Below are positions 9,200 to 38,310 of a DNA stretch of 64,000 nucleotides, one piece after another. Made by a program: the position numbers and the translations under genes. How positions within the stretch are numbered: position 1 is the stretch's first letter; each line of letters starts with the position of its first letter. Source of the DNA: a virus. The DNA is taken from positions 1-64,000 of IMG/VR virus record IMGVR_UViG_3300023178_003744; one strand, given 5' to 3'. Under the pieces are notes generated by a model. That model did no database searches. It saw nothing but the letters and a program-made list of their open reading frames with translations, and was not told the DNA's origin.

Positions 9200-10567
9200 A
9201 TGGCTTTACAACTAAGACGCGGTACTGACGCTGAGCGTTTAACAATTACACCTGCAGAAGGTGAATTAATATATACTACTGATACGAAGTTAATATATGT
9301 AGGCGACGGCAGTACACTAGGGGGCACAAAAGCCGATAGTGGTATTACTGATTTACTTTCAGATAGCTCTCCGCAGCTAGGTGGTAACTTAGATCTAAAC
9401 TCACAAACTATTACTGGCACCGGCGCTATTAATATTACTGGCAATATTAATGGTAACACAGTAGCAGGCAGTAGTGGTAACTTTACAAGCTCAGTAATTG
9501 GTAGTTTACAAGCAGCAAGCATTCAAGGTGATCTAACTGGATCTGTATTTGCCGATGACTCTACAATGCTTGTAGATGGTACTGATGGCAAAATTGTTCT
9601 TGTAAACAATGTAATTCAAGATTTAAGTAATGTTTATGTGCCCGTTACACCAACCGGCGGCGATGCTCTTATATGGAATGCAGTAGACAGCCGTTGGGAA
9701 GCTGGTAATCCTGCTGCAAGCGGCGGTACATTTGTAGGCGACGTCAAAGGCAGTATATTTGCAGACGATAGTACTTTAGTTTTTGATGCTATCAATAACT
9801 TAATAACTGTTCCTAGTATAGGTACAACTAATATATTTCCTCGAGATGCTAATGGTATTTCAATTGTAGGATTTCCGTCGGTTACTAATAAATTTTATTT
9901 GCAAGGTCAAGAAATACGTAGTCAGCAGATATTTGCTAGAACTACAACCGAAGATATAGAAGGTGAATATGTTGCATCGGGATCAACACATGAATTTGTA
10001 AACGGTACTCCGAGATCAATAGGTTCAATAACATTCCAAAAATTTGACGGGGTTGAGTTCTTCACACACGGAGTAATCGAAGGATTGAGTCACCGCATGG
10101 TACTAGCACATACAGCTAGTGCAACTGAACAACCTCCAATTTCTAAGCAATTCAGATTGATAGATGGATTTTTTGTTTTTGGTGATGCAGATTTTAGAGA
10201 AAAATTAAACGTTGGCGGCTCGGTATATTTAACCGGTGAAGTTACCGCTGACCAAGGTGTTCGTGCAAACATTATAGGTGATGATTCTGCTGTGATTTTA
10301 AATTATACAACAGGAGCTATAAACGCTAGCACAGTTACTGGTGACTTAAAGGGTAGTGTTTTTGCCGACGATAGTACTGCAATTGTAGACAGCATTAACC
10401 AAACTATAACTGCTGGAGGATTTGTGCAGTTTGGCTCATATAACACTACAGAACGAAATGCTCTTACTGCGGCAAATGGAATGGTAATATACAACTCACA
10501 AGTCAATAGATTTCAAGGTTATCAAAATGGTGCGTGGATAAACATCGACGACGGAACTGCGGCTTAA
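9200..10567 (+). CDS. virion fibre/spike-like protein (Mtd/hyaluronidase-type N-terminus)
   Basis: MALQLRRGT...PAEGELIYTTDTKLIYVGDG; DSSPQLGGNLDLN; three GDxxGS(V/I)FADDST repeats; C-terminal TTERNAL.AANGMVIYN..FQGYQNGAW. Confidence 0.75.
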   Translation: MALQLRRGTDAERLTITPAEGELIYTTDTKLIYVGDGSTLGGTKADSGITDLLSDSSPQLGGNLDLNSQTITGTGAINITGNINGNTVAGSSGNFTSSVIGSLQAASIQGDLTGSVFADDSTMLVDGTDGKIVLVNNVIQDLSNVYVPVTPTGGDALIWNAVDSRWEAGNPAASGGTFVGDVKGSIFADDSTLVFDAINNLITVPSIGTTNIFPRDANGISIVGFPSVTNKFYLQGQEIRSQQIFARTTTEDIEGEYVASGSTHEFVNGTPRSIGSITFQKFDGVEFFTHGVIEGLSHRMVLAHTASATEQPPISKQFRLIDGFFVFGDADFREKLNVGGSVYLTGEVTADQGVRANIIGDDSAVILNYTTGAINASTVTGDLKGSVFADDSTAIVDSINQTITAGGFVQFGSYNTTERNALTAANGMVIYNSQVNRFQGYQNGAWINIDDGTAA

Positions 10568-11442
10568 CAGTACCCTACATTCTTAGGTGGCTTAATCGGC
10601 GGCAATGCAGGTGGCCAGCCTGGCCAAGCTGGCCCTACTTGTAAAAAAAGTTCTGCTTCGTTGGTTTCTAATACATCAAAATACAATGTGTATTCCTGTC
10701 CTTCAAAAGAAAATTTTATATCAAATTTTTCTTCAGTTTTTCCGTAAATAAATCCATCTTCGTAAAAAACACCTGTCGGTAGAGGACTAATGTCTATTTC
10801 ATGAACATTGCCATCGAATAATTGAAATGCAAATAGTTCGTTTGGTTGGATATTTAAAATATCATTATTATTATGAATTAGTCCTGACATATTGTGTAAT
10901 CCTTGTTTATTATATTTATGCTTATACAAATGATACTTGGCTAATAGTAGACTGTTAGATGATTTACTCCTAAAATATACTATATTTTGATTCATAGTGT
11001 TTAACATTTTAATAATTTTTTTATCTGATTTTTTTGCTACTATCGTTACATTAGAATGCATTGCAAGTGCAAGATAGTTTAACTGTTTTTTATTAGGAAA
11101 GCTTACATGTAGCTGTTCTTGATCAAATTTATTTAATAGTTTTGCTAGCTTTTTATCTAAATAAGATAATCCAAAAGGCATGTAAATAGGATATTTTATT
11201 TCATGATTTATAAATTGGCTTAATAAATTAAATAAACTTTCATTGTTAATATTGATGTTATAGATAATAATTGGATAATTTAGTGTAGTAAAAGATTCAG
11301 CAACTTTAATAGTGTGAGAATTTAAATAATTTGTATAAGAATTCCTTACTGATATTTGGCCTACTCTGTGTATTTTATTTAAATTTTTAGTGTCACGTAA
11401 AACACTTATATTATCAATTATAATTGCTAGTTTTTTATCCAT
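10564..11442 (-). CDS. degenerate subtilase(S8)-like domain, Ig-like segment and Pro/Trp-rich C-terminal tail
   Basis: Ordered motifs AIIIDN / NSHTIKVAE / IYMPFG / VSFPN / SNVTIVA / SSNSLL; LPTGVFYEDGFIYGK; tail GPAWPGWPPALPPIKPPKNVGYC. The ORF is solid, the fold call tentative; start 11442 or 11460. Confidence 0.5.
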   Translation of the reverse strand: MDKKLAIIIDNISVLRDTKNLNKIHRVGQISVRNSYTNYLNSHTIKVAESFTTLNYPIIIYNININNESLFNLLSQFINHEIKYPIYMPFGLSYLDKKLAKLLNKFDQEQLHVSFPNKKQLNYLALAMHSNVTIVAKKSDKKIIKMLNTMNQNIVYFRSKSSNSLLLAKYHLYKHKYNKQGLHNMSGLIHNNNDILNIQPNELFAFQLFDGNVHEIDISPLPTGVFYEDGFIYGKTEEKFDIKFSFEGQEYTLYFDVLETNEAELFLQVGPAWPGWPPALPPIKPPKNVGYC

Positions 11443-12250
11443 AAACGTTCGAGTTTCCATATGCCCAATGCTTCACTGCCATTTTCTTTTTTGATGATTT
11501 ATGATTATTTCGTAGTATCGTATCGTATGGTTTTCCGTATTTTTCTTTAAAATGAATTTTATATTCCTTAAATCCTGTCCAAGAGTTATCTTGTTGTATA
11601 ACGGGTAGTCCGAGATCATTATAAAGCAAAAATTTCTTTGTATACATATTTGCATTCTTCATGTTGTGTACGTTTGATTTGATTATTTGCTTTTCAACTT
11701 CAAATTCTAAAAAAAAGAAAGGAAACAAATTAACCATATTGTTACTTTCTTTATATCTATATAGAACAAGTTCATCGTACGAAATCCAATTATATAATTT
11801 ATAACCGTATGTATCCTGCCATAATATAGGTGCAGATGGCAGTAGAATATTATAGTCAGGAAAATGTTTTACAGCATAATCAATAATATGTAAATGTACT
11901 GCAAATTGAGGACTTGTGCATCTATATAGGTTAAAATATTCTTCTGTAATATTTTTTTCCATGTATAATTTATCTAAATCTAAATATAATTTATGATCTA
12001 TTTGTAGTTGTTCTGCTGTTAAATTATCATATTTATTAAAAAAATTTTTCTTACTACCGTCTATGCAGTATTTGGCAAATAAAGTTTCTACGTGTATATT
12101 ATTATTTTTTAAAAATAATGTTAACGCCTGTGAATCAATTCCACCGCTAAATAATACTAAATTTTTTCTATTTGCAATTTTTGTAAGATCGTACTTTTTT
12201 TCCTGAATAATACATATCTCAATATCTGATTTCGATAAAACTTTTAACAT
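11435..12250 (-). CDS. PP-loop ATPase (adenine nucleotide alpha hydrolase; asparagine synthetase/QueC-like)
   Basis: LVLFSGGIDSQ motif; lacks the QueC Zn cysteines. Confidence 0.7.
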   Translation of the reverse strand: MLKVLSKSDIEICIIQEKKYDLTKIANRKNLVLFSGGIDSQALTLFLKNNNIHVETLFAKYCIDGSKKNFFNKYDNLTAEQLQIDHKLYLDLDKLYMEKNITEEYFNLYRCTSPQFAVHLHIIDYAVKHFPDYNILLPSAPILWQDTYGYKLYNWISYDELVLYRYKESNNMVNLFPFFFLEFEVEKQIIKSNVHNMKNANMYTKKFLLYNDLGLPVIQQDNSWTGFKEYKIHFKEKYGKPYDTILRNNHKSSKKKMAVKHWAYGNSNVYG

Positions 12251-12254
12251 GTTT

Positions 12255-12271
12255 TATTTATAGTATAAATA
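12255..12271. promoter_or_regulatory. back-to-back T4-late-like promoters
   Basis: TATTTATA-G-TATAAATA; each TATAAATA ends 4 nt before a start codon (12250 -, 12276 +). Confidence 0.75.
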
Positions 12272-12275
12272 TCTT

Positions 12276-12716
12276 GTGATTATAAAAAAAATTACATTTA
12301 ATACTGCATTACCTTTCTTAAAAAATCTATGGCCTACTACAAATAACATTTTACCAGCAAGTAGCATGCAGTATCTAGGTGGAAATGATATAACTATTTA
12401 CGAAAAATTTGAACCTAGTTTTTTTGGGATGTATAATAATACAGAGATTATAGGTGTAGTATCTGGTCATAAATCTTCCCAAGAATACTATAGAATGCGA
12501 GGATTATGGATCAATGAATTTTATAGAAAAAAGGGATTAAGTAAAAATTTGTTTATTACTATCGAAAACCAAGCTTTAAATGAAAATTGTAATTTTTTAT
12601 GGAGCTTTCCTAGACACGAAGCAATAAAAGCATATGCATCAAATGGCTTTGTACAAACTAGTAAATTTTTATCAACATCATATGGATTAAATTGCTATGC
12701 ACTTAAAAAACTTTAA
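12276..12716 (+). CDS. GNAT family acetyltransferase
   Basis: RMRGLWINEFYRKKGLSKNL (motif A) and AIKAYASNGF (motif B). Confidence 0.85.
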   Translation: MIIKKITFNTALPFLKNLWPTTNNILPASSMQYLGGNDITIYEKFEPSFFGMYNNTEIIGVVSGHKSSQEYYRMRGLWINEFYRKKGLSKNLFITIENQALNENCNFLWSFPRHEAIKAYASNGFVQTSKFLSTSYGLNCYALKKL

Positions 12717-13278
12717 CTTTACTCCGCCATTTTATACAGTACTAGATGTCTTAACTGATAGAGAGTGCTTGTTTTTAGAAAAATATCTAGCATTATCTGA
12801 CGATCAATTACAAACAGCTACTATTAATAGTAATAAAAAACCATCCGACGAGCGTAAAAGTTTAATAAATTTTCATAAATTTAATAATTCAAAAAATAAA
12901 TGGATATTTGAAAAAATTAATAATAGTGTTTTACATGCAAATCATAATTTTTGGAACTATGACTTGCACGGATATGACTTTTTTCAATATACTGTATATA
13001 CTACAGAGAATTCTCACTATAATTGGCATAATGATATCGGAGATTACAATAGCTTTTTTGGTGAAAGAAAAATAAGTATTAGTATTTTAGTAAATGATGA
13101 GTTTACTGGTGGCGTATTCAAAATTAATAACTTAAATCGTAATCAAGAAATAGATGTTACGTTAAAAAAAGGTCAAGCTATAATTTTTCCTAGTTTTGTA
13201 CCGCATTGCGTAACACCAGTTACTGCCGGCACACGAAAAAGCGTGGTAGCTTGGATTTGCGGTCCGCAATTTAAATAA
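12697..13278 (+). CDS. 2OG-Fe(II) oxygenase (PKHD/prolyl-4-hydroxylase-like)
   Basis: YNWHND, RKISISI, FTGG.F, FPSFVPHCVTPVTAGTRKSVVAW. Confidence 0.88.
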   Translation: MHLKNFNFTPPFYTVLDVLTDRECLFLEKYLALSDDQLQTATINSNKKPSDERKSLINFHKFNNSKNKWIFEKINNSVLHANHNFWNYDLHGYDFFQYTVYTTENSHYNWHNDIGDYNSFFGERKISISILVNDEFTGGVFKINNLNRNQEIDVTLKKGQAIIFPSFVPHCVTPVTAGTRKSVVAWICGPQFK

Positions 13279-13290: not shown

Positions 13291-13353
13291 TTATAGCATA
13301 TCTACGGGATGAATGGGCAATTCGAATGACAATAATAAATCATCAGTAAACAT
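13291..13353 (-). CDS. unannotated 20-aa peptide MFTDDLLLSFELPIHPVDML
   Basis: Minus strand reads TAA-AGAGGTCAT-ATG; RBS and ATG lie 9 nt after the upstream stop, and the ORF fills most of an 84-nt gap. Confidence 0.5.
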   Translation of the reverse strand: MFTDDLLLSFELPIHPVDML

Positions 13354-13362: not shown

Positions 13363-14046
13363 TTATATTAATACATTTTTTAAATCGTTTATACCATCCG
13401 AATGCATTGCTATGAAAAACTGATAGGTTTCTTTGTCAACACAAGATCTTGCTCCGTGAATTATATTTGTGTCTATAACATATAACCTACCTGCTTCAAT
13501 TTCAAAATCTTCAAAGTCTTCTACTTGCGGATTCATGCTTTTAACATCTCGAGGATTAGATCGTCTACGTTGCTTATCAAATTGTATCTTAACTTTATCA
13601 GGTTCAGTTGTTCCCCATAGACGTAGTATAGGAGAAGGCATCCATGTGTCTGTATGTGGCCAGAAAAATGATTCTGCATCCCAGCGTAATATTGCACTCC
13701 TTACCATGTGCTTCTTAATAGGTTTAAGTACAGCAAATGCACTTTCGTCTAATACTTCTGTTGAGACTGTAGCATCGGCGTCTAGGAAAAATTTTTCTGG
13801 GCGAGCACGAATCCATTCATCTAATGGATAACATATTGGCTCTGGATTGTTAAGCATACTGCCGTTTTGATTTACCAATGGTAAGCCATATCTTGGCAAG
13901 TGAGCCTTTTCTTCTCCCCACTTTCTAAAAGCATACTTATACTTTTTCATACATTCATAAAAACTGTCTACATCAAAAACCATGCTAGTTTTTTGTAGTA
14001 CTGTAGGATGAAAGTCTATATATTCTTTTTCTTCGAGCATGTTCAT
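13363..14046 (-). CDS. cupin/Fe(II) oxygenase-like protein (Asp/Asn beta-hydroxylase-like)
   Basis: FWPHTD..LRLWG and EAGRLYVIDTNIIHGA (HxD...H). Confidence 0.6.
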   Translation of the reverse strand: MNMLEEKEYIDFHPTVLQKTSMVFDVDSFYECMKKYKYAFRKWGEEKAHLPRYGLPLVNQNGSMLNNPEPICYPLDEWIRARPEKFFLDADATVSTEVLDESAFAVLKPIKKHMVRSAILRWDAESFFWPHTDTWMPSPILRLWGTTEPDKVKIQFDKQRRRSNPRDVKSMNPQVEDFEDFEIEAGRLYVIDTNIIHGARSCVDKETYQFFIAMHSDGINDLKNVLI

Positions 14047-14627
14047 ATAATTGATGTTACTAAATGTATTCTTGATTCTGTGCTTGCATTAAAAGCAGTA
14101 TGATACTGAGCTGTATTAGTAAGCCACCAAGTATTAGCAGGCATGTGTACAACTTCGTTTTTTATAACCATTTTGCACCCTATATTAGTTTCTATAGGAT
14201 AGTGCAATCTTGTATCAGCATCGTTATGCCAAGTTAAACAGGTTTTAGGCCTCATTAACATCAGTCTCATTCGACCTATTGTAAATTTATCAGATACCGC
14301 ACGATAAATTTTTTCAAAAACTGTACCTTTAAATTGACTGCATAGATCAGTAAAATCTTTTTCATTTTTTGGCACTTTATAAGGTTTTGGTACAAATTTA
14401 ACTGTTTTACCGTTTTCGTCAAACACCTCGTGTCCATTTTGCCAATCCCAGATTAAACTGCCGGATCCGTAATGTATATCATCGGGACGATCTTTTGTAG
14501 TGTTAAGACAAATTTGACTGTCTCTTTTTTCCCATGATATTATTTCATTATCTATTAAATTGTCTAATTCTTCTGTAACATCTAGTACAGGTAAATCAGT
14601 TAGGTTTTTAAAAAATTTATATTTCAT
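14043..14627 (-). CDS. aspartyl/asparaginyl beta-hydroxylase-like 2OG-Fe(II) oxygenase
   Basis: RMRLM.M.PKTCLTWHND..RLHYPI.TN and NTAQYHTAFNAS.ESRIHLV. Confidence 0.75.
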   Translation of the reverse strand: MKYKFFKNLTDLPVLDVTEELDNLIDNEIISWEKRDSQICLNTTKDRPDDIHYGSGSLIWDWQNGHEVFDENGKTVKFVPKPYKVPKNEKDFTDLCSQFKGTVFEKIYRAVSDKFTIGRMRLMLMRPKTCLTWHNDADTRLHYPIETNIGCKMVIKNEVVHMPANTWWLTNTAQYHTAFNASTESRIHLVTSII

Positions 14628-14638: not shown

Positions 14639-15751
14639 TTATTTCTTGCGTTTGGGTATCTTGCTATCAGCTGAACTAACACAACTTTCAGTAATACAAG
14701 GTTTTGCACTATCAAAAAGTTTAAATCCAGTTTCTATATTGCCCAGGGGAGCATCATGACAGCTGTAGCTGCGCTTTACACTACCGTCAGGTTCTCTAAT
14801 AATAATACCGCTATAGCCAGCATTGCAGCTCCATCCTTTAAATTTATTGAAATCAAATGCATTAAATCTTTCAGCTTGATCCATATACCATTTTTTACCT
14901 TTGGAATCTGTAAATTCTACTTGCATATGCCACGGTACACTTTTATCATTTTCGCCTATTGCATATGAAGGTAGTTCGAAATTAGGTTTAGGTCTATTAG
15001 CCCACTTGCGCTTTACTTCAGTGTATGCCATTTGCGGCATACCGTTCCAAAGCCGCTTTAAGTCTTCTTCTTTGTAACCTTCGACCACACGTGATGCAGT
15101 AGGATCTGATTGTGGTTTAAGGGTAACATTGATTCCTTGTTCGTGGAAGAACAGTGCGTTTTCCCAGTCCCTTTCAAACCATTCTGGAACCATAACCATG
15201 TTAATAGTAACTTGGACATCGTGTTCTTGACACAGTACAAGCTTATTAGCAAAGTCCTGCATCTTCTCGCGGGTATTTAGATGCTCTGTATGTAAACTAG
15301 CAGTAATACTAGCACGGTGGAACGGCTTTGCGTATTCTACATATGTCTCAAACCACTTCATAGGTCGAGAGCAGTTTGACGTCATATGAATACTTGTGTA
15401 ATTAGTGTTATCAACGTCGTCAGCGAGATATTTAAGTATGTCAAGATAACCGGGATGAAAAGTAGGTTCACCCCCACTAAGGCTGAAATGAAAGCTATTA
15501 AATCCATTGCCCCGAGCTTGTCGTTTAATTTCATCTATTGTCCTCAAGCATAGTTTAGTCGGTCTGTGATCTTTTTTATCACTGCGAGCATAAGGCCAGC
15601 AGTAACTACAACGATAGTTACAGAAGCGTCCTAGTAACCAGCTTACTGTGAACAAGTCTCTGTATAGTAAAGTACGCTGCCCTACTTGTATTATATCATC
15701 AAATGGTATTTTTGTAAAGTCGTAATCTGACCATTTTAAATCTTCGGACAT
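14639..15751 (-). CDS. radical SAM enzyme with C-terminal twitch/SPASM-like domain
   Basis: CNYRCSYC, SGGEPT; C-terminal CNAG...DGSV..SYSC..PLGNI..C..C. Confidence 0.9.
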   Translation of the reverse strand: MSEDLKWSDYDFTKIPFDDIIQVGQRTLLYRDLFTVSWLLGRFCNYRCSYCWPYARSDKKDHRPTKLCLRTIDEIKRQARGNGFNSFHFSLSGGEPTFHPGYLDILKYLADDVDNTNYTSIHMTSNCSRPMKWFETYVEYAKPFHRASITASLHTEHLNTREKMQDFANKLVLCQEHDVQVTINMVMVPEWFERDWENALFFHEQGINVTLKPQSDPTASRVVEGYKEEDLKRLWNGMPQMAYTEVKRKWANRPKPNFELPSYAIGENDKSVPWHMQVEFTDSKGKKWYMDQAERFNAFDFNKFKGWSCNAGYSGIIIREPDGSVKRSYSCHDAPLGNIETGFKLFDSAKPCITESCVSSADSKIPKRKK

Positions 15752-15759: not shown

Positions 15760-16410
15760 TTATCCAGTAATTAAATTCCTAATATATTTTGCTTGCCATT
15801 TTAATCCTTCTTCACCAAAATGGGCACCTTTGTCAACTATATATTCGTGAAATAAATCATCACCTAATACCTCTTCAATACACAGTACATTATGATCATA
15901 GTATTTTTTATATGTACTATATCCCCCAAATGTTTGGAAAAATGTTAAATTAAAATTATTTCTTATTGCTTCGAAAGTATTACTGAATTCTAATTCACTT
16001 TCTATTGTAGGAATTATTTTTAACCTGCTTTTGTAAAAATTCCTAATTTTCAACGGTCCTTTACTTGTAAGTTTTGGTTGATAAGTTATTGCATGAGATT
16101 CACGATCAAGCCAAAGCCCCCAATAATTTGACAATTCCTTTTTTAAATATTGCATTGGATCTATTATTTCGGGCATGTAGGTCCATCTCCATGCAGTCGT
16201 TCCCTGAAAAATGTGATATGTAGGTTCGTTAATTTTTTTTGATAAATGCATTATCAAAGCTGAAGAAAAATGTATGCTAGAGCCAGCATAAGAAAAATTA
16301 TAAATTTTCCAAGATGGTTCTAATAAAGCTAACTGTTTTGGCCAATTATCAAAATTATTAATGTGCGGTTGGCCCCAACTCCAACTACAACCATAAACAT
16401 GTATTCTCAT
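15760..16410 (-). CDS. SGNH/GDSL hydrolase-like protein
   Basis: VYGCSWSWG (block I), NFSYAGSS, terminal DKGAHF. Confidence 0.6.
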   Translation of the reverse strand: MRIHVYGCSWSWGQPHINNFDNWPKQLALLEPSWKIYNFSYAGSSIHFSSALIMHLSKKINEPTYHIFQGTTAWRWTYMPEIIDPMQYLKKELSNYWGLWLDRESHAITYQPKLTSKGPLKIRNFYKSRLKIIPTIESELEFSNTFEAIRNNFNLTFFQTFGGYSTYKKYYDHNVLCIEEVLGDDLFHEYIVDKGAHFGEEGLKWQAKYIRNLITG

Positions 16411-17174
16411 TACTTTCCTTTTTTAGGTATCAGTATGAAAGATGATATTTCTACGTTTTTTACAAATTGATACTTGTGCTGAGCACAAAATTGTCTTATA
16501 TACGGAGTATCAATTTCTCTAATAGGATTATCATTCAAGTGTTCAAATTGTATCAACGGTCTCCACTTTTCAATAAGTTTGTTTGCTCCTTTAATGATAG
16601 CAATATCACTACTTTCAGCATCAATTTTTATAAAGGACAAATCTTCAATTTTTTCTAAAAATACATTGTCGAGTGTAGAAGATTGCATTTCAATAGTAAA
16701 CCAATTTGGTAATATTTGTTTCTTAACATTGTTATTCACATCGTGTGGAAGAAGTGGTGAGAGCAACGGCGTGTGCAAAACCGTATTGTGTTTTGCATCA
16801 TCTTCTACCATATCAAAATACCGTGTAGAATAACCTATATCTTGATTACTGCAATGAAATTGTACAGTTTCTTGCTTATCTGATAAAAAATAATGATAAG
16901 CTTCTAAATTATTTAATTTTTTATTTTTGATGTCTTGCATGATTAGTTCATAACTACTCTCATGCGCATCTATAGCGTATACTGTTTTAAATAATTTTGT
17001 ATATTCTAAAGTATTATGGGTACACTTGCCAATTCCAACTTCAATAGCTGTGCTATTTTCATGCAAAAGTCTTTTTGAAATTAATGTACCTATACCTGTA
17101 TAATGAAATAATGTATTACGATCCACTTGATATCCACTTATAAAGTTCGGGATTAAGTGCACGCCAATGTTCAT
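16410..17174 (-). CDS. FkbM family methyltransferase
   Basis: AIEVGIGKC, TLDN, FIKIDAESSD..IIKGA..I...RPLIQFE; the true start may be GTG 17126. Confidence 0.8.
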   Translation of the reverse strand: MNIGVHLIPNFISGYQVDRNTLFHYTGIGTLISKRLLHENSTAIEVGIGKCTHNTLEYTKLFKTVYAIDAHESSYELIMQDIKNKKLNNLEAYHYFLSDKQETVQFHCSNQDIGYSTRYFDMVEDDAKHNTVLHTPLLSPLLPHDVNNNVKKQILPNWFTIEMQSSTLDNVFLEKIEDLSFIKIDAESSDIAIIKGANKLIEKWRPLIQFEHLNDNPIREIDTPYIRQFCAQHKYQFVKNVEISSFILIPKKGK

Positions 17175-28467: not shown

Positions 28468-28481
28468 ATAAATATATTTAT
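28468..28481. promoter_or_regulatory. palindromic divergent late-like promoter ATAAATATATTTAT
   Basis: Identical to 18263-18276; the plus-strand box is 5 nt from ATG 28480. Confidence 0.65.
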
Positions 28482-30355: not shown

Positions 30356-31278
30356 AATTTTATCTTCTTACGTACTAGTGTATTATATAATTTACAATTA
30401 AATAATTCTTTATCACTATTTGCAGTTAGATTAACAATACGTATTTTTTTTGTTTCGCATTCTTTAATTCTTATATCGGGATCTATATGAAAAAATAATT
30501 CCCAAAAATCAAAATTTTGATACATAATATCTTTATCAAGAACTTCGATATAAACTTCATTCTTAGGAGACTTTGTTTTCATATCAGTTACAAAATTATT
30601 ATTTACTAAAACTTTTTTGCTTACAGGATTTATAACTTCTAGCCCATATTCTAATAGATACTCTCTGTAATTACATGAACTAGGTCTGCTTTCACTTTTT
30701 CTAAACCAATCATCATATCCGTTATCATCCCTAAAACTAGACAAACCGTGCCAGCTTATTTCTAAGCGTTCTTTATTACGTATTTGCACACTAATATCAT
30801 TACCAAAATTAGATATAATTTCATCTTGATTTTTAATTTGTGTGTAACTAGTTTTTTTGATAGGTTTTGTACTTTTTGTTTGCTCAAGAATTGGCACTGT
30901 GTCTAAATTTAAATATCTAGCTATTAATAATCGTTTATTACCGGGGTGCACTGCTTCATAAAACTTTTGAATAGGCATAAAAATTCCGTTTTGATCAATG
31001 TCAGTTATAATAAAATTACATAAATCAATTGTTCCCTGTAGCCATAATTCAAGTTTATGATACATAGATAGCATTCTATAATCTAGGTTGCTATATAAGT
31101 TTCTAAGTCTTCGACTCGGCATATAGTCTGCAAACGCACTAGGAATATTATTTAATTTTTCTAATTTATATTCCGGATATATAAAAAAATTATAATTTTG
31201 AAAAATGTAATTCAAAGCAGCATTGTCTGGCCATCTAGGTTTTTCTGACAAATTATCTTGCAAAGTTTTTAATTTCAT
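30352..31278 (-). CDS. hypothetical protein (weak ParB/sulfiredoxin-like motif)
   Basis: Coupled 308-aa ORF; GIFMPI...VHPGNKRLLIARYL...VPI. Confidence 0.6.
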   Translation of the reverse strand: MKLKTLQDNLSEKPRWPDNAALNYIFQNYNFFIYPEYKLEKLNNIPSAFADYMPSRRLRNLYSNLDYRMLSMYHKLELWLQGTIDLCNFIITDIDQNGIFMPIQKFYEAVHPGNKRLLIARYLNLDTVPILEQTKSTKPIKKTSYTQIKNQDEIISNFGNDISVQIRNKERLEISWHGLSSFRDDNGYDDWFRKSESRPSSCNYREYLLEYGLEVINPVSKKVLVNNNFVTDMKTKSPKNEVYIEVLDKDIMYQNFDFWELFFHIDPDIRIKECETKKIRIVNLTANSDKELFNCKLYNTLVRKKIKF

Positions 31279-32357
31279 TATTTAAATTGCTCCGAAAAAG
31301 GATCAAATTCCTTACCACACTTCATAGCACAGACTTTCAACTTTCCAGCTTTGCAACTAGGTTTATTCCAACTTTCTTCTATGTTGTTAAATATACCTGT
31401 ATCAAATACCGCCTTTAATCCGTGTTTTTTTGCACTGATAGCATCTTTTCCACCAACACTTTTTATAAAATCCCATACTTGTTCAACTTTTGGATCTTTA
31501 TGCCACCATTTATACATACGACCTGCGGTCCAACAACACGGCATAGCAAGACCTTCTGCTGTAATAAACAAGCTGCCTTCGTCTTTTACCTTACAAAATA
31601 TTTCAGCTTGATCATAATATGCATCCATCGTACCGTGTTTTTGTTTGATATCGTCATATTGCTTAATAGCTGCATTTTGATACTGTGCGTTAGGTTTTTT
31701 TAATTCAGCAGTTTTATTTCCTTTACGATCCACTGCTTGGTGTGTTTCCTTTTTTTCGCTTTTTGCACTTATAAATCTACCAGTTTTCTTTGCAACAAAT
31801 CTTTCAAAACCTATTTTTTCACTTAATAATTTGGCTTGTTCTACTTGATGTTGATTATGCTCAAATATTAAAAAATCCCATCGGCTACGGCCGCCTGCAT
31901 TTGTAAATGCTCGCATACTGCGTTCTACGTTATCCCATACTACACCTTGACGATAGATATGATTAGTATCGGACATTCCATCTACACTAAAAATAACAGC
32001 GCCCATACGACCAAAAGTTTTTGCAAGTTCCTGCCACCATGCTTCGTCTCTTGCACCTGCATTTGTATTCATTGATAACCACATTTTAGAATTGTGTTTT
32101 CTAAAATATTGAAATATCTCAAGTGTATCCCGTGCAACAATAGGGTCGCCTAGGTTGCCACACATGTACATAGTGTTTAATTGTTGGATAAATTCTGGTT
32201 TAAAAATACGCTTGCAATCATCAAGTGTTAATTCGCTAAGATCGATATGTGGATTTATTGCGCCACCGTTTTGGTTACGATCACACATTGGACAACTTGC
32301 CTGACAATTTTGTGTATTTTCTAAGTGTATGGTTCGTATATTTTCATACTTGTACAT
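31278..32357 (-). CDS. radical SAM enzyme with C-terminal twitch domain (paralogue of 27436-28455)
   Basis: CQASCPMC, CGNLGDP, MPCCW, CAMKC; start set at the TAATG-coupled ATG 32357. Confidence 0.9.
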   Translation of the reverse strand: MYKYENIRTIHLENTQNCQASCPMCDRNQNGGAINPHIDLSELTLDDCKRIFKPEFIQQLNTMYMCGNLGDPIVARDTLEIFQYFRKHNSKMWLSMNTNAGARDEAWWQELAKTFGRMGAVIFSVDGMSDTNHIYRQGVVWDNVERSMRAFTNAGGRSRWDFLIFEHNQHQVEQAKLLSEKIGFERFVAKKTGRFISAKSEKKETHQAVDRKGNKTAELKKPNAQYQNAAIKQYDDIKQKHGTMDAYYDQAEIFCKVKDEGSLFITAEGLAMPCCWTAGRMYKWWHKDPKVEQVWDFIKSVGGKDAISAKKHGLKAVFDTGIFNNIEESWNKPSCKAGKLKVCAMKCGKEFDPFSEQFK

Positions 32358-33022
32358 TAGTAGTGACCAAATCCCCAGTGTTTCTCTCTGCATGACCAAC
32401 AATCTTTACAAATTACTGACCAATTTTCTGTAAAAACTTCACAACTACGAGTTTCAGGTAATAAGCTGTCTAACACACCTAAAGATTTATACAGCTCTTG
32501 TACACCGCGTTTATCAATATTGATTAAAGGTCGAAATGATCTAACCCCATAACGTTGTGGTTTTTTATGATGTTTTTTCTTTTTACGACCTTTATCGTAA
32601 ATATGTTTGCCGTCATATAGTTCGGGTGCTTTCTTTTTACTAGGATTTGCAGTCAAACCTACAAAATGTGCTTGTATTTTTTTTTGTTTATACAAATCCA
32701 TTACTATATCGCTCATATCTCCAATGTAATTGTTCGCAGCGTCTGTTCTTATTGTGCCTATAAAATGCTCACCAAAATTAACACCTGTAAGTTCTGTAAT
32801 TTTATTCATTACTCTTTTTGCATAAACTTCTTGAAATGGTTTATTTTCTGCTATACAACTTATAGGGTGAATAACAGTATCGGAACGTTCTTCTTTTACA
32901 TACAATGCAAGCATATAACAAACTATAGCACTATCAATACCGCCGCTAAGTTTAATACCTACTTTTTTAACAAATTTTGAAAATTCTATATTAATGATAT
33001 CTTGTTTATTATAAAATTCCAT
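32357..33022 (-). CDS. QueC-like PP-loop ATPase (7-cyano-7-deazaguanine synthase-like)
   Basis: KLSGGIDS; PLINIDK; TRSC-x10-CxxCxxC Zn motif. Confidence 0.75.
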   Translation of the reverse strand: MEFYNKQDIINIEFSKFVKKVGIKLSGGIDSAIVCYMLALYVKEERSDTVIHPISCIAENKPFQEVYAKRVMNKITELTGVNFGEHFIGTIRTDAANNYIGDMSDIVMDLYKQKKIQAHFVGLTANPSKKKAPELYDGKHIYDKGRKKKKHHKKPQRYGVRSFRPLINIDKRGVQELYKSLGVLDSLLPETRSCEVFTENWSVICKDCWSCREKHWGFGHY

Positions 33023-33024
33023 TT

Positions 33025-33246
33025 TTATTCCAAAATCAACTTAATGTCTTTTCCTGGCCCAATTTTACTAGGAAGGTCGCCATATGTATCCACATACCAT
33101 TCAATAACTGCAATATACCAGTTATGACTATTGTGATGTGCTTTTTTATTAAACTTATGTATGTTATTATTAGTAGCTTGCATAGTGCTCAAAGCACGAG
33201 CACTTTCTTTTTGCAAATCTCTAACGCTTAGATTACTTATATCCAA
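33025..33246 (-). CDS. small hypothetical protein
   Basis: 73-aa ORF filling the operon gap. Confidence 0.7.
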   Translation of the reverse strand: MDISNLSVRDLQKESARALSTMQATNNNIHKFNKKAHHNSHNWYIAVIEWYVDTYGDLPSKIGPGKDIKLILE

Positions 33247-35836
33247 TTCTCATAAACCTTGTATAACCTTCTAAATTTAATTCATCTGAAAACAGTACAT
33301 CCGACATTGGCGTTTGTGATTCAAACTGTTGTAAATTACTCGATCTATTAATATGCTCATCTATTTTCAAATCATTACTTTGTAATATTAACAACTTTCC
33401 TTGTGGCAATCTATCATACCATAAAGTAAAGTTTTCTATATGTTCACAGCTTGTATTAATAATTGTGTCCGGTCTTGCTTCTAAAGTTACTTCTCTATCT
33501 TCTTGTGCTGTTAAAGTTTTAAATTCAAAAAAGGAATAATCAATGTTATGTATATCCATTGTCTGTGCTTTAAACTTCCAATCGCCTGCTACTATATCTT
33601 TATTAAACAGTTCTGCAATTTTCCAGCAAGTAGGATCACTATCAAAGCTGTACATTTTAGTAAAATCTACACCATGCTCTCGTAATAGCGGCACAACTGT
33701 TGCATACCATCCAGCACATAAAAATACTATACCTAAATTTTCTATTGCGTCTAATGACGACACTGTATTTGCTAACCATTTTTTACTTAATATTTGTCCT
33801 CGAGAGAAGCAATCAAAATTAAAATTTTCATTATCTTTTAATTTTTTCAAAGGCTCTACAAATAAGCTACTTGTGTATTTTTCTAATATACGCCATAACG
33901 CATGATAGTTGTTAGACAATAAACTAAATTCATCTTTTAAATCAGGCAATAACCTAGATAAACTGTATAAGTTATTCTCTAGTACAGCTTTCCGTAAGTC
34001 ATCATTTTCTGTCAATTTAAAAATACTGGACAAATCATGATCGTTGTACATACGCCTTACATTTGAAATTTGTCCTTGATACAATATTTCAAATCTATCT
34101 AGTGTATCAATAATGTTCATAGACTTAGGTATAATTACACTGCTTTTAATTTGACTTTCTATACCTTCATCTAACGATACCACTGCTTCTTGCTCTGGGT
34201 ATTCTATATTATCAAATGTATTGCTAGGCACAAACGCAACAGATTGAAACTTTGCGTGTAACCATTCAAAATCATTTATTTTCTTTAACTTTTCGGGATC
34301 TGTTTTATTACTTTTTCCGTAATTTCTACCTTCATTAGCACCTTTTAAAATCCAATCTTTCAAAGGTCCTTCGGCATGCGTACACCAAGTTTTAAGTCTT
34401 TCTTCGGTTTCATTATCTTTTTGACGGTCGATTACTTTGCTTGCTAACTTAACACATTCTCTAAAAGCACTACGCCAAGCACTAAATTCATCTACTGCAA
34501 AATTTGTTAAATTACTTACAGTTGGCATAGGCTTAAATTTAGAACTTATGCTTGTAGTCATATCAGTTTTTGATATATCCATATGTTCTGTAAGTGCACG
34601 TGGCAACAGCTTTACACCACCGTAGCCATACTCTAGACCGTTAATTGGGTTTTTACTTCTCCATACCTTTACATAGTCTTTTTCGTTTTCAGGAGTAATA
34701 TAATCAAAGTTAAAATCATCAACAATAGTTGCGTCGCCGTCTACTACCCAAAACATATCAGAATTAACTTGTTTTGCAGCTTCTATGTGTGCTTGATGAA
34801 TACCTTCTATACCGTGTACTCTTTTTGCTCTAGGAAAACGTTTTAACAATTCGTCATAATTTTTATCTGCTTCGGGTTCATCGTAGGTTATCATTACTAT
34901 ATCATAATGGCTTTTTTCTGTTTTCAAATACTTATGGCCGATACGAGGCGGGTTAACGTACATGCTCTTAAACATTTTGCTTTGATCTTCGTTATATACA
35001 TCTAACGGTACATCCATGCTGAGCTCATTTACTAAGTGTTCTCCAAGGATTTCCATTTCGTATAAAAGATCTTCTTCGCCCATTTTAGAATATGTGTCAG
35101 TCCACATCTTATTAACATATTCAAAATCACGGACATTAACATAATCCCAATCAGTGCAATTTGTAAGATAAGTGCCAAGGCGGGCACCATACATTGCCCA
35201 TATACCATTATCTACATCTAATCCTACAGTTTGCCAAATACGTAATCTGTCCATGTTTTTCTTGTGTATTTTATGAAAATTAGCAAGATCTACTTTTTCA
35301 CCTTCTCTTAGAGTCATTTTTACGCCTTCTCTAAATCCAGCACGCCATGCTTGATGCGGAGTTGCATTGTTGTATACTGTACTACATACTCTATCTATCT
35401 GGCAATATTCTACATCCCAGCAAAAGTCTACTTGAGCTTGGATATTATTTGGATCAGCTGACTCGTGTGTTTTCATATTTTCGATTATATGTTTTGGCCA
35501 TGACTTGATGCCGCCGTTACCGTACACTAATCCATTAATTATATTCCGACCGCTCCAACTTACAACACTGTTTTCTAAGTCAACATGATCTTGAAAAACA
35601 AGTTCTTGATTTATAAAGTCGCCGTTGATTACATTATCAGCATCTACAATAATTAATCTTTCTGTATCAGATAATTTTGCACATGCTTTATGTGCAGCAT
35701 CAGAACCTTCAACACCGTGCACCCGTTTTGCCCATGGTATTTTTTTAATTAAATCATTGTAATTTTTTTCTGCATTAGGCTCATCATAACTTAAAAAAAT
35801 CACGTCATAATCAGCAGGTTTCAATATATTAGTCAT
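33233..35836 (-). CDS. fusion of two tandem GT-A-like glycosyltransferase domains and a C-terminal class I methyltransferase-like domain
   Basis: Internal repeat YD(V/I)..SYDEP.A.KNY..RVHG.EG...AH..(I/V)VD(A/G)D..NGL.YG.GG.K..AWR..FRE.VK; C-terminal FLCAGWYA, SFDSDP, INTSCEH. Confidence 0.7.
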   Translation of the reverse strand: MTNILKPADYDVIFLSYDEPNAEKNYNDLIKKIPWAKRVHGVEGSDAAHKACAKLSDTERLIIVDADNVINGDFINQELVFQDHVDLENSVVSWSGRNIINGLVYGNGGIKSWPKHIIENMKTHESADPNNIQAQVDFCWDVEYCQIDRVCSTVYNNATPHQAWRAGFREGVKMTLREGEKVDLANFHKIHKKNMDRLRIWQTVGLDVDNGIWAMYGARLGTYLTNCTDWDYVNVRDFEYVNKMWTDTYSKMGEEDLLYEMEILGEHLVNELSMDVPLDVYNEDQSKMFKSMYVNPPRIGHKYLKTEKSHYDIVMITYDEPEADKNYDELLKRFPRAKRVHGIEGIHQAHIEAAKQVNSDMFWVVDGDATIVDDFNFDYITPENEKDYVKVWRSKNPINGLEYGYGGVKLLPRALTEHMDISKTDMTTSISSKFKPMPTVSNLTNFAVDEFSAWRSAFRECVKLASKVIDRQKDNETEERLKTWCTHAEGPLKDWILKGANEGRNYGKSNKTDPEKLKKINDFEWLHAKFQSVAFVPSNTFDNIEYPEQEAVVSLDEGIESQIKSSVIIPKSMNIIDTLDRFEILYQGQISNVRRMYNDHDLSSIFKLTENDDLRKAVLENNLYSLSRLLPDLKDEFSLLSNNYHALWRILEKYTSSLFVEPLKKLKDNENFNFDCFSRGQILSKKWLANTVSSLDAIENLGIVFLCAGWYATVVPLLREHGVDFTKMYSFDSDPTCWKIAELFNKDIVAGDWKFKAQTMDIHNIDYSFFEFKTLTAQEDREVTLEARPDTIINTSCEHIENFTLWYDRLPQGKLLILQSNDLKIDEHINRSSNLQQFESQTPMSDVLFSDELNLEGYTRFMRIGYK

Positions 35837-36338
35837 TCTCAAAACTCATAGGTAAATTTTTCTTTGTAAAGATACTTATTGGTACATTAATTTTATCTGA
35901 AATTTTTATTTCAATACAGCGCTTTTCAAATAGCTCGTTTACGGACAAAGTTATAGTATCAAGTAAATTATGTGGTGAATTTTTTTCAGTTACATAAAAA
36001 ACTATCCAACTGCTAGTAACAGATTCAATATCTGCTTGGTCCGTTAAAGTAATTTTTAAAATATTATCTACTTTTGTGATTATTATTGTACTATCTGCAT
36101 TATTTTTTACATTCACAAAACTTTTATAGCTAACAGTAAAATTATTGATTGCTTTTTTTTCTACTAGGCAATATACATCATGTATTTTTTGAACTTGAAA
36201 ACTGTGAAGATTAACTTTTCCTTCTACAAAATCTACATATTGCTGCTTGCTTACTTCCAGTAAATCTAAAGTGTTGTCATGAAAATTGATACATCCTAAA
36301 ATAGTTCCTGTATTTTTGTCAAATTTTAGATAAAACAT
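35829..36338 (-). CDS. hypothetical protein
   Basis: TGATG-coupled 169-aa ORF. Confidence 0.7.
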   Translation of the reverse strand: MFYLKFDKNTGTILGCINFHDNTLDLLEVSKQQYVDFVEGKVNLHSFQVQKIHDVYCLVEKKAINNFTVSYKSFVNVKNNADSTIIITKVDNILKITLTDQADIESVTSSWIVFYVTEKNSPHNLLDTITLSVNELFEKRCIEIKISDKINVPISIFTKKNLPMSFEND

Positions 36339-37144
36339 CAGTCATCTAGCCAATCTTTAATATCATCATTAATAAAATTATCTTCTACATAGTGTAAAAA
36401 TTGGTGTTGTTTATAATTATTAATAAAAATTCCATCAGCACTTGCATAGTACATCAAACTTTCAGTCCAACTTTGAATGTTTCGAACTCCTTGCAAAGGT
36501 GTTTTCATGTGAACTAGATTAAATTTATTTTTATCTAATTTAATATTGCATAATTTAACACACATTGCTGCGGCGACATCTATACTGCAAAATTCTTGTT
36601 TTTGCTTAGGAGTGAATATGTTAGCAAAATCATCAAAATTATCTACTATTAATTCTAAATTATCAAAAAAGTTATCATTTGTTTCATTTTTTTCAAAGTA
36701 AAAAAATGCACTGTAAATGTTAGGTAAATTATTTGCTAAAAATACTTTCCTATGCTTATAATCTTGGATGATCTTACGCCCTCTATGATTTACAATTTCT
36801 GTACTAAAATATAATTTAGTATCTTGTAACTCATCCCATATATTAGATAAATTACACAATACCAACACATCTGTGTCAAAAACTATAGTACGATTGTACG
36901 GTGTTAATTTGTAAATAAGCTTCCTATTATTAATTCTCCACTCATTAATTTCAGTTAAATCATTTTCAATTGGAATAATTTTATCAAACAAATGTATTTT
37001 TTCATCAGGCACTTTATCGTTAGTAATAATACTTATTTTTTCGTCTTTACTAAATTTTTTTATACTTTGGGCTAGATAGCAAGCTTGCAATACATAGTTA
37101 AATTTAGTATTATTTTGTGCTACTACACACACTCCTTTATTCAT
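36338..37144 (-). CDS. GT-A fold glycosyltransferase-like protein (GT8-like)
   Basis: IYKLTPYNRTIVFDTDVLV (DxD); start set at MNKG 37144. Confidence 0.75.
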   Translation of the reverse strand: MNKGVCVVAQNNTKFNYVLQACYLAQSIKKFSKDEKISIITNDKVPDEKIHLFDKIIPIENDLTEINEWRINNRKLIYKLTPYNRTIVFDTDVLVLCNLSNIWDELQDTKLYFSTEIVNHRGRKIIQDYKHRKVFLANNLPNIYSAFFYFEKNETNDNFFDNLELIVDNFDDFANIFTPKQKQEFCSIDVAAAMCVKLCNIKLDKNKFNLVHMKTPLQGVRNIQSWTESLMYYASADGIFINNYKQHQFLHYVEDNFINDDIKDWLDD

Positions 37145-37979
37145 TTGCAAAGTCCTTGTCAATAATTTTATCTAACTCAAACTTATTCATTAAATGCACA
37201 TTGGTATTTTTCATTACATGTAAATTATAATCACCTCTATTATTAGACAATACTTTAATAGTACTGTTGTCTATTGATAACGGTATGTCTACATCAAATG
37301 AATTATACAGTGTATAAGGCAGGTCGACTACAGTTTTACTTTCAGTAAAACCATTTATAATATGTGCTGCAATACTAAATGCATAATCATTTCTAAATTT
37401 TGTACTTGTAACATTAAACAACGACCGATAGTAACTCCAATTATCTCTTACAAAGCCTACTAAATCAAAAATATTTTTTGCTAAGTTGCTTTTTTTGAAG
37501 TATACTACCGTTGCCCAGTATAAAGGAATACTAGCCTTAGATACTCTACCTTGTTTAACTTGAGGTACTGTGTCTGCAAAGTCTTTATATGCTTTACCAA
37601 TACATATATCATTGTTACTTTGAAAAAGATTTAATAAATTAGAATTAGCAATAATAAAATCTGTGTCAATTAACAATGTTTTATCGTAAGGGGTCAGTGT
37701 ATAAGCATCTACTCTATTAGAATTATGCCATAGATCTCTAATCTTAAGTGATCCTTGCGTAAATGTACGATAATTCTCAAAATCGGGAGTATTTGTAACT
37801 ACAATATTATCTACATACTTAGAATAAAACGGATATTTTTGAAAATTATCTGTATCGTTTGTAACAACAGTTACAGGTAATTTTAAATATCGTTTTACAC
37901 GCTTGGCACAGTATATTGCTTGTTTTACATAGTCAACTGTTTCATTATTAATTGCAAACAATAATACTCCGCTAGACAC
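37137..37979 (-). CDS. GT-A fold glycosyltransferase-like protein (paralogue of the adjacent gene)
   Basis: AYTLTPYDKTLLIDTDFII; FRNDYAFSIA; HLMNK. Confidence 0.75.
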   Translation of the reverse strand: MSSGVLLFAINNETVDYVKQAIYCAKRVKRYLKLPVTVVTNDTDNFQKYPFYSKYVDNIVVTNTPDFENYRTFTQGSLKIRDLWHNSNRVDAYTLTPYDKTLLIDTDFIIANSNLLNLFQSNNDICIGKAYKDFADTVPQVKQGRVSKASIPLYWATVVYFKKSNLAKNIFDLVGFVRDNWSYYRSLFNVTSTKFRNDYAFSIAAHIINGFTESKTVVDLPYTLYNSFDVDIPLSIDNSTIKVLSNNRGDYNLHVMKNTNVHLMNKFELDKIIDKDFANE

Positions 37980-38310
37980 TTTTGTTCCTAATTAAATCGG
38001 CAATATTATCATAATCAGCTTTGTACTGTTTTAAAGCAACATTATAGGTATTCCAAACTATATGATAAAAGTCATACAAGTTAGTAACACAGATTGGTAT
38101 ATTATCGTTGTCAAGAAAGACTGCGTCTTCTTCATCTTTAGACAAAAACAAGCCGATTTGTCGCACTAATTCAGCATCAGCTGTGAAGGCGCCGCCGTTA
38201 TAATACACTTGTAATTTTTCTAAAAACTTATCGTATATGTAAGCTCTTTGTCTATTGATTGATTCTAAATTTTTACTAGCTTCTAAAGCTTTAACTAATC
38301 TTTGATCCAT
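37972..38310 (-). CDS. hypothetical phage protein
   Basis: 112-aa ORF, first gene of the glycosyltransferase operon. Confidence 0.75.
   Translation of the reverse strand: MDQRLVKALEASKNLESINRQRAYIYDKFLEKLQVYYNGGAFTADAELVRQIGLFLSKDEEDAVFLDNDNIPICVTNLYDFYHIVWNTYNVALKQYKADYDNIADLIRNKSV

Follow-up and report, generated by a model that had tools for sequence, protein, structure and literature searches.

Eleven radical SAM enzymes, glycosyltransferase folds and a conserved 73-residue protein in a fibre-linked gene island of a marine giant phage lineage: a possible soluble glycan pathway with orthologues in Bdellovibrionota

That viruses can encode their own glycosylation is already known, and in the chlorovirus PBCV-1 a cytoplasmic protein with two glycosyltransferase (GT) domains and a methyltransferase (MT) domain, A064R, reportedly takes part in capsid glycosylation. 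We know of no phage pathway with about a dozen radical S-adenosylmethionine (SAM) enzymes (rSAMs) to which a product has been assigned. Here we analyse such an island, which occupies positions 10564-38310 of a 64-kb stretch (the window), the first part of the 77-kb IMG/VR record IMGVR_UViG_3300023178_003744 from an uncultured marine giant phage; genes are named by their first coordinate in the window. Among the closest described systems are a ‘host recognition cluster’ that is hypervariable in pelagimyophages and cyanomyophages (PMC7029224) and a T4-like marine genome with 12 rSAM genes (PMC5332604), and in both papers rSAM-rich islands are mentioned in passing and left unexplained. Like the island analysed here, the pelagimyophage/cyanomyophage cluster is large and variable, lies among fibre genes, and combines glycosyltransferases with rSAM cassettes. 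The present phage differs in belonging to a ~357-kb lineage with a baseplate nearest to those of 280-490-kb jumbo phages, and a backbone built around a 73-amino-acid (aa) gene, with orthologues in Bdellovibrionota, is absent from the descriptions in either paper. In mycobacteriophages, as described in work by Freeman et al. (2023; cited in PMC12619734), phage-encoded glycosyltransferases decorate structural proteins; the system described there is without radical chemistry and belongs to an unrelated phage group, whereas the genes reported here are linked to fibres and have a putative acceptor. New in the present locus are the orthologous bacterial loci, the 73-aa gene, the natural gene fusions, and the split between a tailoring half shared with bacteria and a phage-specific front end. 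A ‘moraphage’ paper that we also considered concerns another lineage.

CheckV estimates that the record is 21% complete, giving a genome of ~357 kb; the lineage is abundant, and its largest relative cited here reaches 275 kb at an estimated 77% completeness. Together with a baseplate wedge protein nearest to those of jumbo phages such as Atu_ph07 and 121Q (~30% identity), these values make reasonable the label ‘jumbo phage’ given by an earlier interpretation made from the letters of the window and their open reading frames (ORFs; hereafter, the sequence-only reading). That reading had counted about 30 contiguous genes in the island, and there are exactly 30 once the missed 73-aa gene (here called s73) is added. 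Intergenic gaps do not exceed 84 nucleotides (nt) except at 33023-33232, which contains s73, and the genes form few transcription units, all between fibre genes. No transmembrane segment was predicted in any island protein, so all are soluble, in agreement with the earlier failure to recognise a transporter. The fibre and tail boundaries drawn earlier were also borne out, as 9200 carries Mtd_N and 40320, 41883 and 43034 match tail-fibre PHROGs; these last three are paralogues with common N-termini, and 9200 and 41883 share a short repeated motif.

The arrangement recurs in 240 IMG/VR loci when anchored on rSAM 22248 and in 397 when anchored on s73, that is, on hundreds of contigs of the ~357-kb lineage. 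The sequence-only reading had set recurring linkage of the genes, with each other and with tail genes, against random scatter, and it is linkage that we found, with the backbone repeatedly beside fibres. In order, this backbone runs from a fibre gene through one or two 39330-type proteins, 37972, two GT8-like genes, 35829, the GT-A/GT-A/MT gene and s73 to variable genes, rSAM 31278, further variable genes, rSAM 22248, an array whose rSAMs, PP-loop enzymes, methyltransferases and unknown genes vary, and finally rSAM 14639. Copies of the rSAM family named N_Twi_rSAM (below, N_Twi) that score over the family cut-off number 2 to 9 per genome in five larger relatives. The most conserved enzyme, 22248, matches 2275 clusters built at 90% identity (a single cluster contains 2014 sequences) and is 80-86% identical across the 240 loci and 53-62% identical in Bdellovibrionota; 14639 is 80-91% identical in phage relatives and 63-66% identical in Bdellovibrionota chromosomes. 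The island therefore combines a fixed scaffold with tailoring cassettes that can be exchanged, and its place is always next to fibre genes.

All 11 rSAM genes counted by the sequence-only reading encode the CX3CX2C motif, and 10 of the 11 pass the Pfam PF04055 cut-off of 29.5 bits; the protein of 28480-29805 scores 24.5 bits there, below the cut-off, and 238 bits against NF033640. We assigned proteins to NF033640 (N_Twi_rSAM) by a full-length score of at least 170 bits and by a SAM core preceded by a Cys-rich twitch/SPASM-like domain. Seven island proteins belong to it at full length (194.7-426.4 bits), six of them with Pfam SPASM at residues ~5-93, ahead of Radical_SAM, and this membership names a fold, not a function. 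In an alignment of 71 N_Twi sequences C8, C26, C89, C92 and the CX3CX2C cysteines are invariant, and for 22248 (AlphaFold2 (AF2) model, predicted local distance difference test (pLDDT) 93) an additional [4Fe-4S] cluster is predicted from the conserved Cys ligands. An alignment of the seven island paralogues gave no pattern usable for a locus search. BtrN, DesII, BlsE, viperin and MoaA, which abstract hydrogen from sugars or nucleotides, share the partial-barrel rSAM core with the island enzymes and appear among their hidden Markov model (HMM) and fold neighbours; however, TM-scores on the query are just 0.27-0.36 with the 22248 model, and these enzymes carry their auxiliary domain at the opposite end of the chain from the N-terminal one of the N_Twi proteins. 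Several relatives encode an N_Twi enzyme and a 21398-type PP-loop protein as one fused 827-840-aa protein, and the family representatives include FkbM+N_Twi (P0366), TPR+N_Twi and tandem N_Twi fusions, while within the window 22248 overlaps the PP-loop gene 21398 and FkbM gene 16410 overlaps rSAM 17116. Because of these natural fusions and overlapping genes, radical reaction, adenylation and methylation are most likely steps of a single pathway. Clusters of three rSAM genes, ~25% identical to the island N_Twi enzymes, also lie among unannotated genes in cultured 250-kb KVP40-like Vibrio phages (in Vibrio phage K566, locus L081, at 161.5-166 kb, with neighbours all hypothetical; QD01 is another cultured Vibrio phage with a three-rSAM cluster), and these phages are a possible laboratory model.

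The four GT-A domains of the sequence-only reading are supported by profile for the GT8-like pair and by fold for the two in 33233. For the 36338 family, the match to glycogenin-1 covers residues 6-103, the DxD-bearing N-terminal half, and the DTD motif is invariant; a profile of its paralogous family, 37137, found no match in the PDB. The AF2 model of 33233 comprises two similar alpha/beta domains and a Rossmann domain. Foldseek matched it to class I methyltransferases and to the chondroitin polymerase K4CP, which has two GT-A domains (probability 0.98), and, among viral models, to many GT2/GT-A proteins with a methyltransferase, including a 638-aa chlorovirus protein. In its family D67/D69 are nearly invariant and D368/D370 invariant, and domains 1 and 2 are probably GT-A fold transferases, with support at the fold level. 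The protein gave no sequence-HMM match, an Atlas search returned weak leads alone (scores 0.77-0.78), and the hits of a whole-family profile in the PDB were just spurious armadillo-repeat matches, which we rejected. In some relatives and in bacteria the same three modules are separate genes; at three such loci (L008, 1757-5612; L012, 2565-6228; L015, 2428-6246) an N_Twi rSAM gene stands between the two GT-A genes. Proteins of the A064R type and 33233 alike join two GT-A-type domains and, after them, a SAM methyltransferase in a single soluble chain, and each is encoded by a virus without membrane machinery. The architecture is alike but there is no detectable sequence homology, and we therefore do not file 33233 as a member of the A064R type. 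The target of A064R is reportedly a capsid glycan, while that of 33233 is putative, and chloroviruses are not known to carry an rSAM array, PP-loop enzymes or a counterpart of the 73-aa protein.

The gene missed earlier, s73, shares 14 nt with the end of 33233, and its stop lies 2 nt ahead of the next gene's start codon. Of 80 loci anchored on rSAM 22248, 71 carry it at 64-85% identity, among the highest values in the island; seven of the nine others do not extend to its position, so that 71 of 73 covering contigs have s73 after the MT domain. Its homologues form 3296 protein clusters, all of 73-77 aa. When s73 is itself the anchor, the MT domain is directly upstream in 66 of 80 loci and rSAMs follow within 8 kb downstream in 56 of 57. 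Conservation is even over the full length (29 invariant columns), with no variable core and no Cys, and neither Pfam nor Atlas gave a match. A profile search for s73 found nothing in 12 bacterial stretches fetched around N_Twi genes or in four whole Bdellovibrionota genomes, at least two of which hold orthologous rSAM clusters.

Outside viruses, exact-peptide scanning of prokaryotes, each species represented by one genome, turned up relatives of 22248 at only six loci, five in metagenome-assembled genomes labelled Bdellovibrionota and the sixth within the same phylum sample. NF033640 exceeded its cut-off in 79 of 301 Bdellovibrionota genomes sampled vs. none of 14 control genomes, and many of the bacterial N_Twi matches are on contigs of 1-3.8 Mb, several as clustered paralogues (for example L082-L107; G168:C1 at 1.40-1.43 Mb; G277:C15 at 0.64-0.67 Mb). 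Two chromosomal loci have clear orthologues of 22248 (60-62% identity), 14639 (63-66%), 31278 (45%), 18886 (48%) and 20085 (46%), along with GT-A, GT-A and MT modules as separate genes 34-42% identical to those of the phage. On the 2.9-Mb G168 chromosome, three GT2 genes, one PMT_2 (GT-C) membrane transferase and a flavin oxidoreductase lie between the two orthologue blocks. Among 108 neighbour genes at seven other bacterial loci the commonest families are, in raw counts, GT2 (5), GDSL (4), ABC transporter and ABC-2 permease (3 and 2), DegT sugar aminotransferase (2) and GT1 (2), together with further rSAMs; NAD epimerase/dehydratase and carbamoyltransferase genes are present too. Judged by gene families, this content is that of surface-polysaccharide loci. 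Like s73, the GT8-like pair and 37972, 35829 and 39330 were without a match in the 12 stretches fetched from bacteria.

A tree groups the orthologues of 22248 from viruses in a single clade (100/100) adjacent to those from bacteria, with weak support (85/28) for a position of this clade within the bacterial sequences. Since the best cellular matches of this phage are all in Bdellovibrionota and N_Twi clusters are common there, a predatory bacterium is a lead for the host of the lineage. The 349-kb contig G006:C34 lacks a baseplate homologue and is bacterial, not the nearly whole phage genome for which it could be taken; at 146-192 kb (L083/L094) it carries ~15 rSAM genes within 46 kb, a larger array than the phage's, at a GC content of 0.33 in the sampled part.

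We also examined how the island might be expressed. In 15 of 54 genes vs. ~1.7 expected, the start codon is preceded at 10-37 nt by the hexamer TAAATA, which forms the core of the T4 late promoter, and the genes so preceded include those at every divergent island junction and the fibre-module genes 9200, 40320 and 45145. Occurrences of the complete late octamer of T4, TATAAATA, number 8 vs. 16 expected, so that enrichment is confined to the positioned TAAATA core. At the divergent junctions 12236-12290, 18250-18304, 25043-25111 and 28441-28494, six of the eight flanking genes have 4-5 nt between the end of (A)TAAATA(T) and the start codon, and the TAAATA-bearing starts there have no Shine-Dalgarno sequence, which suggests leaderless or near-leaderless late transcripts. 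The pattern as a whole is consistent with common late-type control of island and fibre genes. Contigs 99-100% identical to island genes, s73 included, occur in three metatranscriptome libraries of different studies; they cover the island in parts, the uncovered parts being uninformative, and are weak evidence of its transcription. Elsewhere in the window (5210-7670), a CobS-like AAA ATPase gene (5286-6362) is preceded by a sigma-70-like promoter (TTGACA, 17-nt spacer, TATTAT), which contrasts with the TAAATA-type sites of the island, and is followed by the gene for a 425-aa partner (PHROG 1314, labelled HNH endonuclease).

We reasoned that the island could encode a cytoplasmic pathway that builds and then edits a glycan, with a fibre-associated virion protein as its candidate acceptor. 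We favour this reading, at somewhat less than even confidence for the whole, because of the sugar context of the bacterial orthologues, the four transferase domains, the solubility of all the enzymes, and the phage-only glycogenin-like enzymes. Its parts differ in strength: the substrate is probably a sugar or glycan, while a phage protein as acceptor is a tentative assignment that falls a little short of an even chance. Of the heavily modified glycan or peptide on virion proteins proposed by the sequence-only reading, the glycan has gained from the four GT-A domains and the bacterial polysaccharide loci; the acceptor on the virion is still something that we infer. A bacterial surface-polysaccharide locus is recognised by a membrane initiating glycosyltransferase, a flippase or ABC exporter, and a polymerase or ligase, and the island, without membrane segments, has none of these. 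As such membrane parts are present around the bacterial orthologues, the phage island looks like a derived soluble subset of such a locus, not a complete one.

In outline, phage and Bdellovibrionota would share one half of a polysaccharide pathway, that of elongation and tailoring, and membrane initiation and export would be replaced by the phage's own front end of two soluble glycogenin-like GT8 enzymes, 37972, 35829 and the 73-aa protein. The GT8-like enzymes would initiate a sugar chain directly on protein, with the 73-aa protein as an adaptor or primer, and the GT-GT-MT protein would extend and cap it. The tailoring set comprises 11 rSAMs, three PP-loop proteins, two SAM methyltransferases, a GNAT, two Fe/2-oxoglutarate (2OG) hydroxylases and a nitroreductase-fold protein. 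Of these, the rSAM array may edit single sugars by hydrogen-atom abstraction (oxidation, epimerisation, deoxygenation or C-C chemistry), and finishing may fall to the PP-loop enzymes (carboxylate amidation), the methyltransferases, GNAT acetylation and the hydroxylases. The likeliest acceptor would be a fibre-associated virion protein such as one of the Thr/Ser-rich pair at 38349-40310 (Ser plus Thr make up 25% of residues in 38349 and 17% in 39330), and variable rSAM cassettes would make the glycan differ between phage strains.

It has not escaped us that several observations weigh against the reading just given. No island protein has a Pfam glycosyltransferase match, PF01501 included, and the GT8 assignment is based on ~100 N-terminal residues. 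Genes for nucleoside diphosphate-sugar synthesis (dehydratase, aminotransferase, nucleotidyltransferase) were not recognised within the phage island. To our knowledge NF033640 has no characterised member and no known reaction. With the 22248 model as query, Foldseek placed the peptide maturases SkfB, CteB and SuiB slightly ahead of viperin, BlsE, MoaA and DesII, neighbours that do not separate peptide from sugar substrates, and the TPR+N_Twi fusions would suit protein substrates. The tally of bacterial neighbours was made without a matched random-locus control, and the metatranscriptome contigs may be carried-over DNA. Glycan, acceptor and reactions alike are what we infer from gene content and folds.

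The strongest competing explanation retains the sugar chemistry and moves the target to the host surface: soluble phage enzymes would act on lipid- or nucleotide-linked precursors of the infected cell, host membrane glycosyltransferases and a flippase or ABC exporter would finish the product, and a putative receptor polysaccharide re-tailored in this way would bring superinfection exclusion or keep progeny from sticking to debris. The orthologous tailoring genes do lie in bacterial polysaccharide loci that include exporters, the initiation and export genes that the island lacks could be provided by the host, hypervariable cassettes mirror receptor arms races, and the glycosyltransferase and rSAM cassettes of the fibre-linked hypervariable island of pelagimyophages have been read in the same way (PMC7029224). 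We nevertheless regard it as rather unlikely, as a pathway initiated by the host does not readily explain why the phage has its own GT8-like pair and small proteins, and the TAAATA sites shared with fibre genes suggest an expression that would be late for exclusion.

Chemistry on peptide or protein side chains, as in ribosomally synthesised and post-translationally modified peptides (RiPPs), is less probable again, and we hold it to be decidedly unlikely. Its substrate would be the conserved 73-aa protein or a fibre protein, which rSAMs would cross-link, epimerise or alkylate, PP-loop enzymes amidate or cyclise, and the nitroreductase-fold protein dehydrogenate, with sugars added by the glycosyltransferases as in glycocins. 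The enzyme classes fit RiPP tailoring sets, diphthamide synthesis likewise joins a radical SAM step to methylation and PP-loop amidation, a highly conserved small gene truly sits within the operon, maturases head the Foldseek matches of the N_Twi model, and TPR+N_Twi fusions occur. The RiPP-like option of the sequence-only reading thus has one candidate substrate, but it is Cys-free and evenly conserved with no variable core, and the four bacterial genomes searched, at least two of them with orthologous rSAM clusters, yielded no copy of it, so that the rSAMs would act on another substrate there. A RiPP cluster is recognised by a precursor with leader and core, an RRE-bearing maturase, and a leader peptidase or exporter, and no RRE or PqqD domain, peptidase or exporter was detected in the island; the bacterial context, moreover, is one of polysaccharide and not of peptide.

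A free small molecule used during infection and left unattached (a modified nucleoside, aminoglycoside-like sugar, cofactor or toxin) has in our view a slim chance: rSAM neighbours of the BlsE, DesII and BtrN type make such compounds and every island enzyme is soluble, but four transferase domains in a fixed position next to fibres suggest a polymer or conjugate, the island has neither an exporter nor a resistance gene, and the bacterial loci carry polysaccharide exporters. Slimmer still, and scarcely credible to us, is the alternative raised by the sequence-only reading that products of the rSAM, PP-loop, GT and MT genes shield virion DNA with a modified or glycosylated base, since the partial QueC-like matches of two PP-loop genes (14.8 and 21.8 bits vs. 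a TIGR00364 cut-off of 150), the presence of viperin, MoaA and QueE among weak rSAM matches, and a preprint indicating that phage glycosyltransferases are able to glycosylate DNA (bioRxiv 10.1101/2023.12.21.572611) stand against the lack of any TGT or DpdA (none recognised earlier, and none found by us) in this record and eight from related phages (the 275-kb contig included), where 7-deazaguanine modification would call for DpdA or TGT together with QueC and QueE at family cut-offs, no Tet/JBP match in a search run without a positive control, and the fibre-gene location and bacterial polysaccharide context of the genes.

The remaining enzyme calls fared unevenly (Table 1). Profile searches confirmed the GNAT (PF00583), FkbM (PF05050/TIGR01444) and nitroreductase (PF00881) genes. 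The three PP-loop ATPases proposed earlier all have the SGGxDS motif (11435, 21398 and 32357), with HMM support that is weak for two and absent for 21398. Of four proposed HxD...H oxygenases, two have HMM support (12697 and 14043), and the candidates 13363, 29798 and 30352 have the motif only. The SGNH assignment of 15760, which has an N-terminal GCS instead of GDS, found no HMM support. The protein of 10564 has no homologue in 80 related loci, and its tail of ~24 Pro/Trp-rich residues is encoded at 10564-10653. A 20-aa ORF proposed earlier at 13291-13353 is not conserved across related loci and was rejected. In the tail module, a single 5046-aa ORF (45794-60934, minus strand) has a 204-aa gene on one side and the baseplate wedge gene on the other, and may be the counterpart of the giant structural proteins of VrlC type found at the edges of such islands in marine myoviruses.

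Table 1. Genes of the island and its flanks, with coordinates in the window.
Feature	Coordinates	Strand	Evidence
Left flank: fibre or receptor-binding protein, 455 aa	9200..10567	+	Pfam Mtd_N 2.8e-11; TAAATA upstream
298-aa protein, Pro/Trp-rich C-terminal tail	10564..11460	-	No HMM match
PP-loop ATPase, SGGxDS at residue 35	11435..12250	-	Weak QueC/MnmA-type N-terminal matches below cut-off
GNAT acetyltransferase	12276..12716	+	PF00583 2.6e-10
Fe(II)/2OG oxygenase, P4H/YbiX-like (2OG-FeII_Oxy_3)	12697..13278	+	PF13640 1e-14; NF003974 2e-12
227-aa protein, HxD motifs only	13363..14046	-	No HMM match
Asp/Asn beta-hydroxylase family oxygenase	14043..14627	-	PF05118 3.3e-11
Core rSAM, 370 aa, conserved array end	14639..15751	-	PF04055 2.1e-15
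216-aa protein	15760..16410	-	No HMM match
FkbM-family methyltransferase, overlaps rSAM 17116	16410..17174	-	PF05050 1.4e-10 and TIGR01444
N-terminal-twitch rSAM	17116..18264	-	NF033640 245.5 bits vs. cut-off 170
Nitroreductase-fold protein	18290..18889	+	PF00881 24.9 bits vs. cut-off 23.5
rSAM, 400 aa, not N-twitch type	18886..20088	-	PF04055; 48% identical orthologue in bacterial locus L102
N-terminal-twitch rSAM	20085..21398	-	NF033640 368.8 bits; bacterial orthologue 46% identical
PP-loop ATPase, SGGxDS at residue 44, 9 Cys, start overlaps end of 22248	21398..22258	-	Motif; paralogue of 32357
Core N-terminal-twitch rSAM, most conserved island enzyme	22248..23645	-	NF033640 426 bits
N-terminal-twitch rSAM	23642..25057	-	NF033640 320 bits
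N-terminal-twitch rSAM	25097..26356	+	NF033640 225.9 bits
N-terminal-twitch rSAM	26340..27446	-	NF033640 194.7 bits
rSAM with SPASM-type C-terminal domain	27436..28455	-	PF04055 and PF13186
N-terminal-twitch rSAM	28480..29805	+	NF033640 237.7 bits
185-aa protein	29798..30355	-	No HMM match; homologues in L012 and L016
308-aa protein	30352..31278	-	No significant HMM match
Core rSAM, 374 aa, C-terminal Cys cluster	31278..32402	-	PF04055; 59-79% identity in relatives, 45% in bacterial locus L097
PP-loop ATPase, SGGxDS at residue 26	32357..33022	-	Motif; partial QueC, NAD synthase and Asn synthase matches
Missed 73-aa gene s73, TTG start	33025..33246	-	No Cys, no family assigned
Predicted GT-A/GT-A/class I methyltransferase protein, 869 aa	33233..35842	-	AF2 pLDDT 82, Foldseek
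169-aa protein, syntenic, fast-evolving	35829..36338	-	24-31% identity at same position in relatives; no HMM match
GT8-like (glycogenin-like) glycosyltransferase, DTD motif	36338..37162	-	Family profile vs. PDB glycogenin-1, E 5.3e-7
Second GT8-like glycosyltransferase, paralogue	37137..37979	-	hhalign to 36338 family, probability 99.8%, E 1e-27
112-aa protein, syntenic	37972..38310	-	27-38% identity at same position in relatives
Two paralogous ~325-aa Thr/Ser-rich proteins, candidate acceptors	38349..40310	-	34% identical to each other; syntenic in relatives
Right flank: three fibre genes	40320..45142	-	PHROG tail-fibre matches, paralogy

Two features of the system offer entry points for experiment: the orthologous chromosomal loci in Bdellovibrionota, some of which are possibly in culturable organisms, and a defined conserved backbone suited to heterologous expression. 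If the glycan reading is true, the island would hold new radical carbohydrate chemistry and give phages a route to diversify the display of fibres or of host surfaces. In a more far-reaching scenario, which we consider unlikely, the phage may infect Bdellovibrionota, share and expand their rSAM glycan toolkit, and re-aim that toolkit at its own fibre proteins through the phage-only parts, with undescribed radical chemistry on carbohydrates and strain-specific virion glycans as the outcome. Were this so, the swapping of cassettes would amount to a combinatorial post-translational system for host range or immunity evasion.

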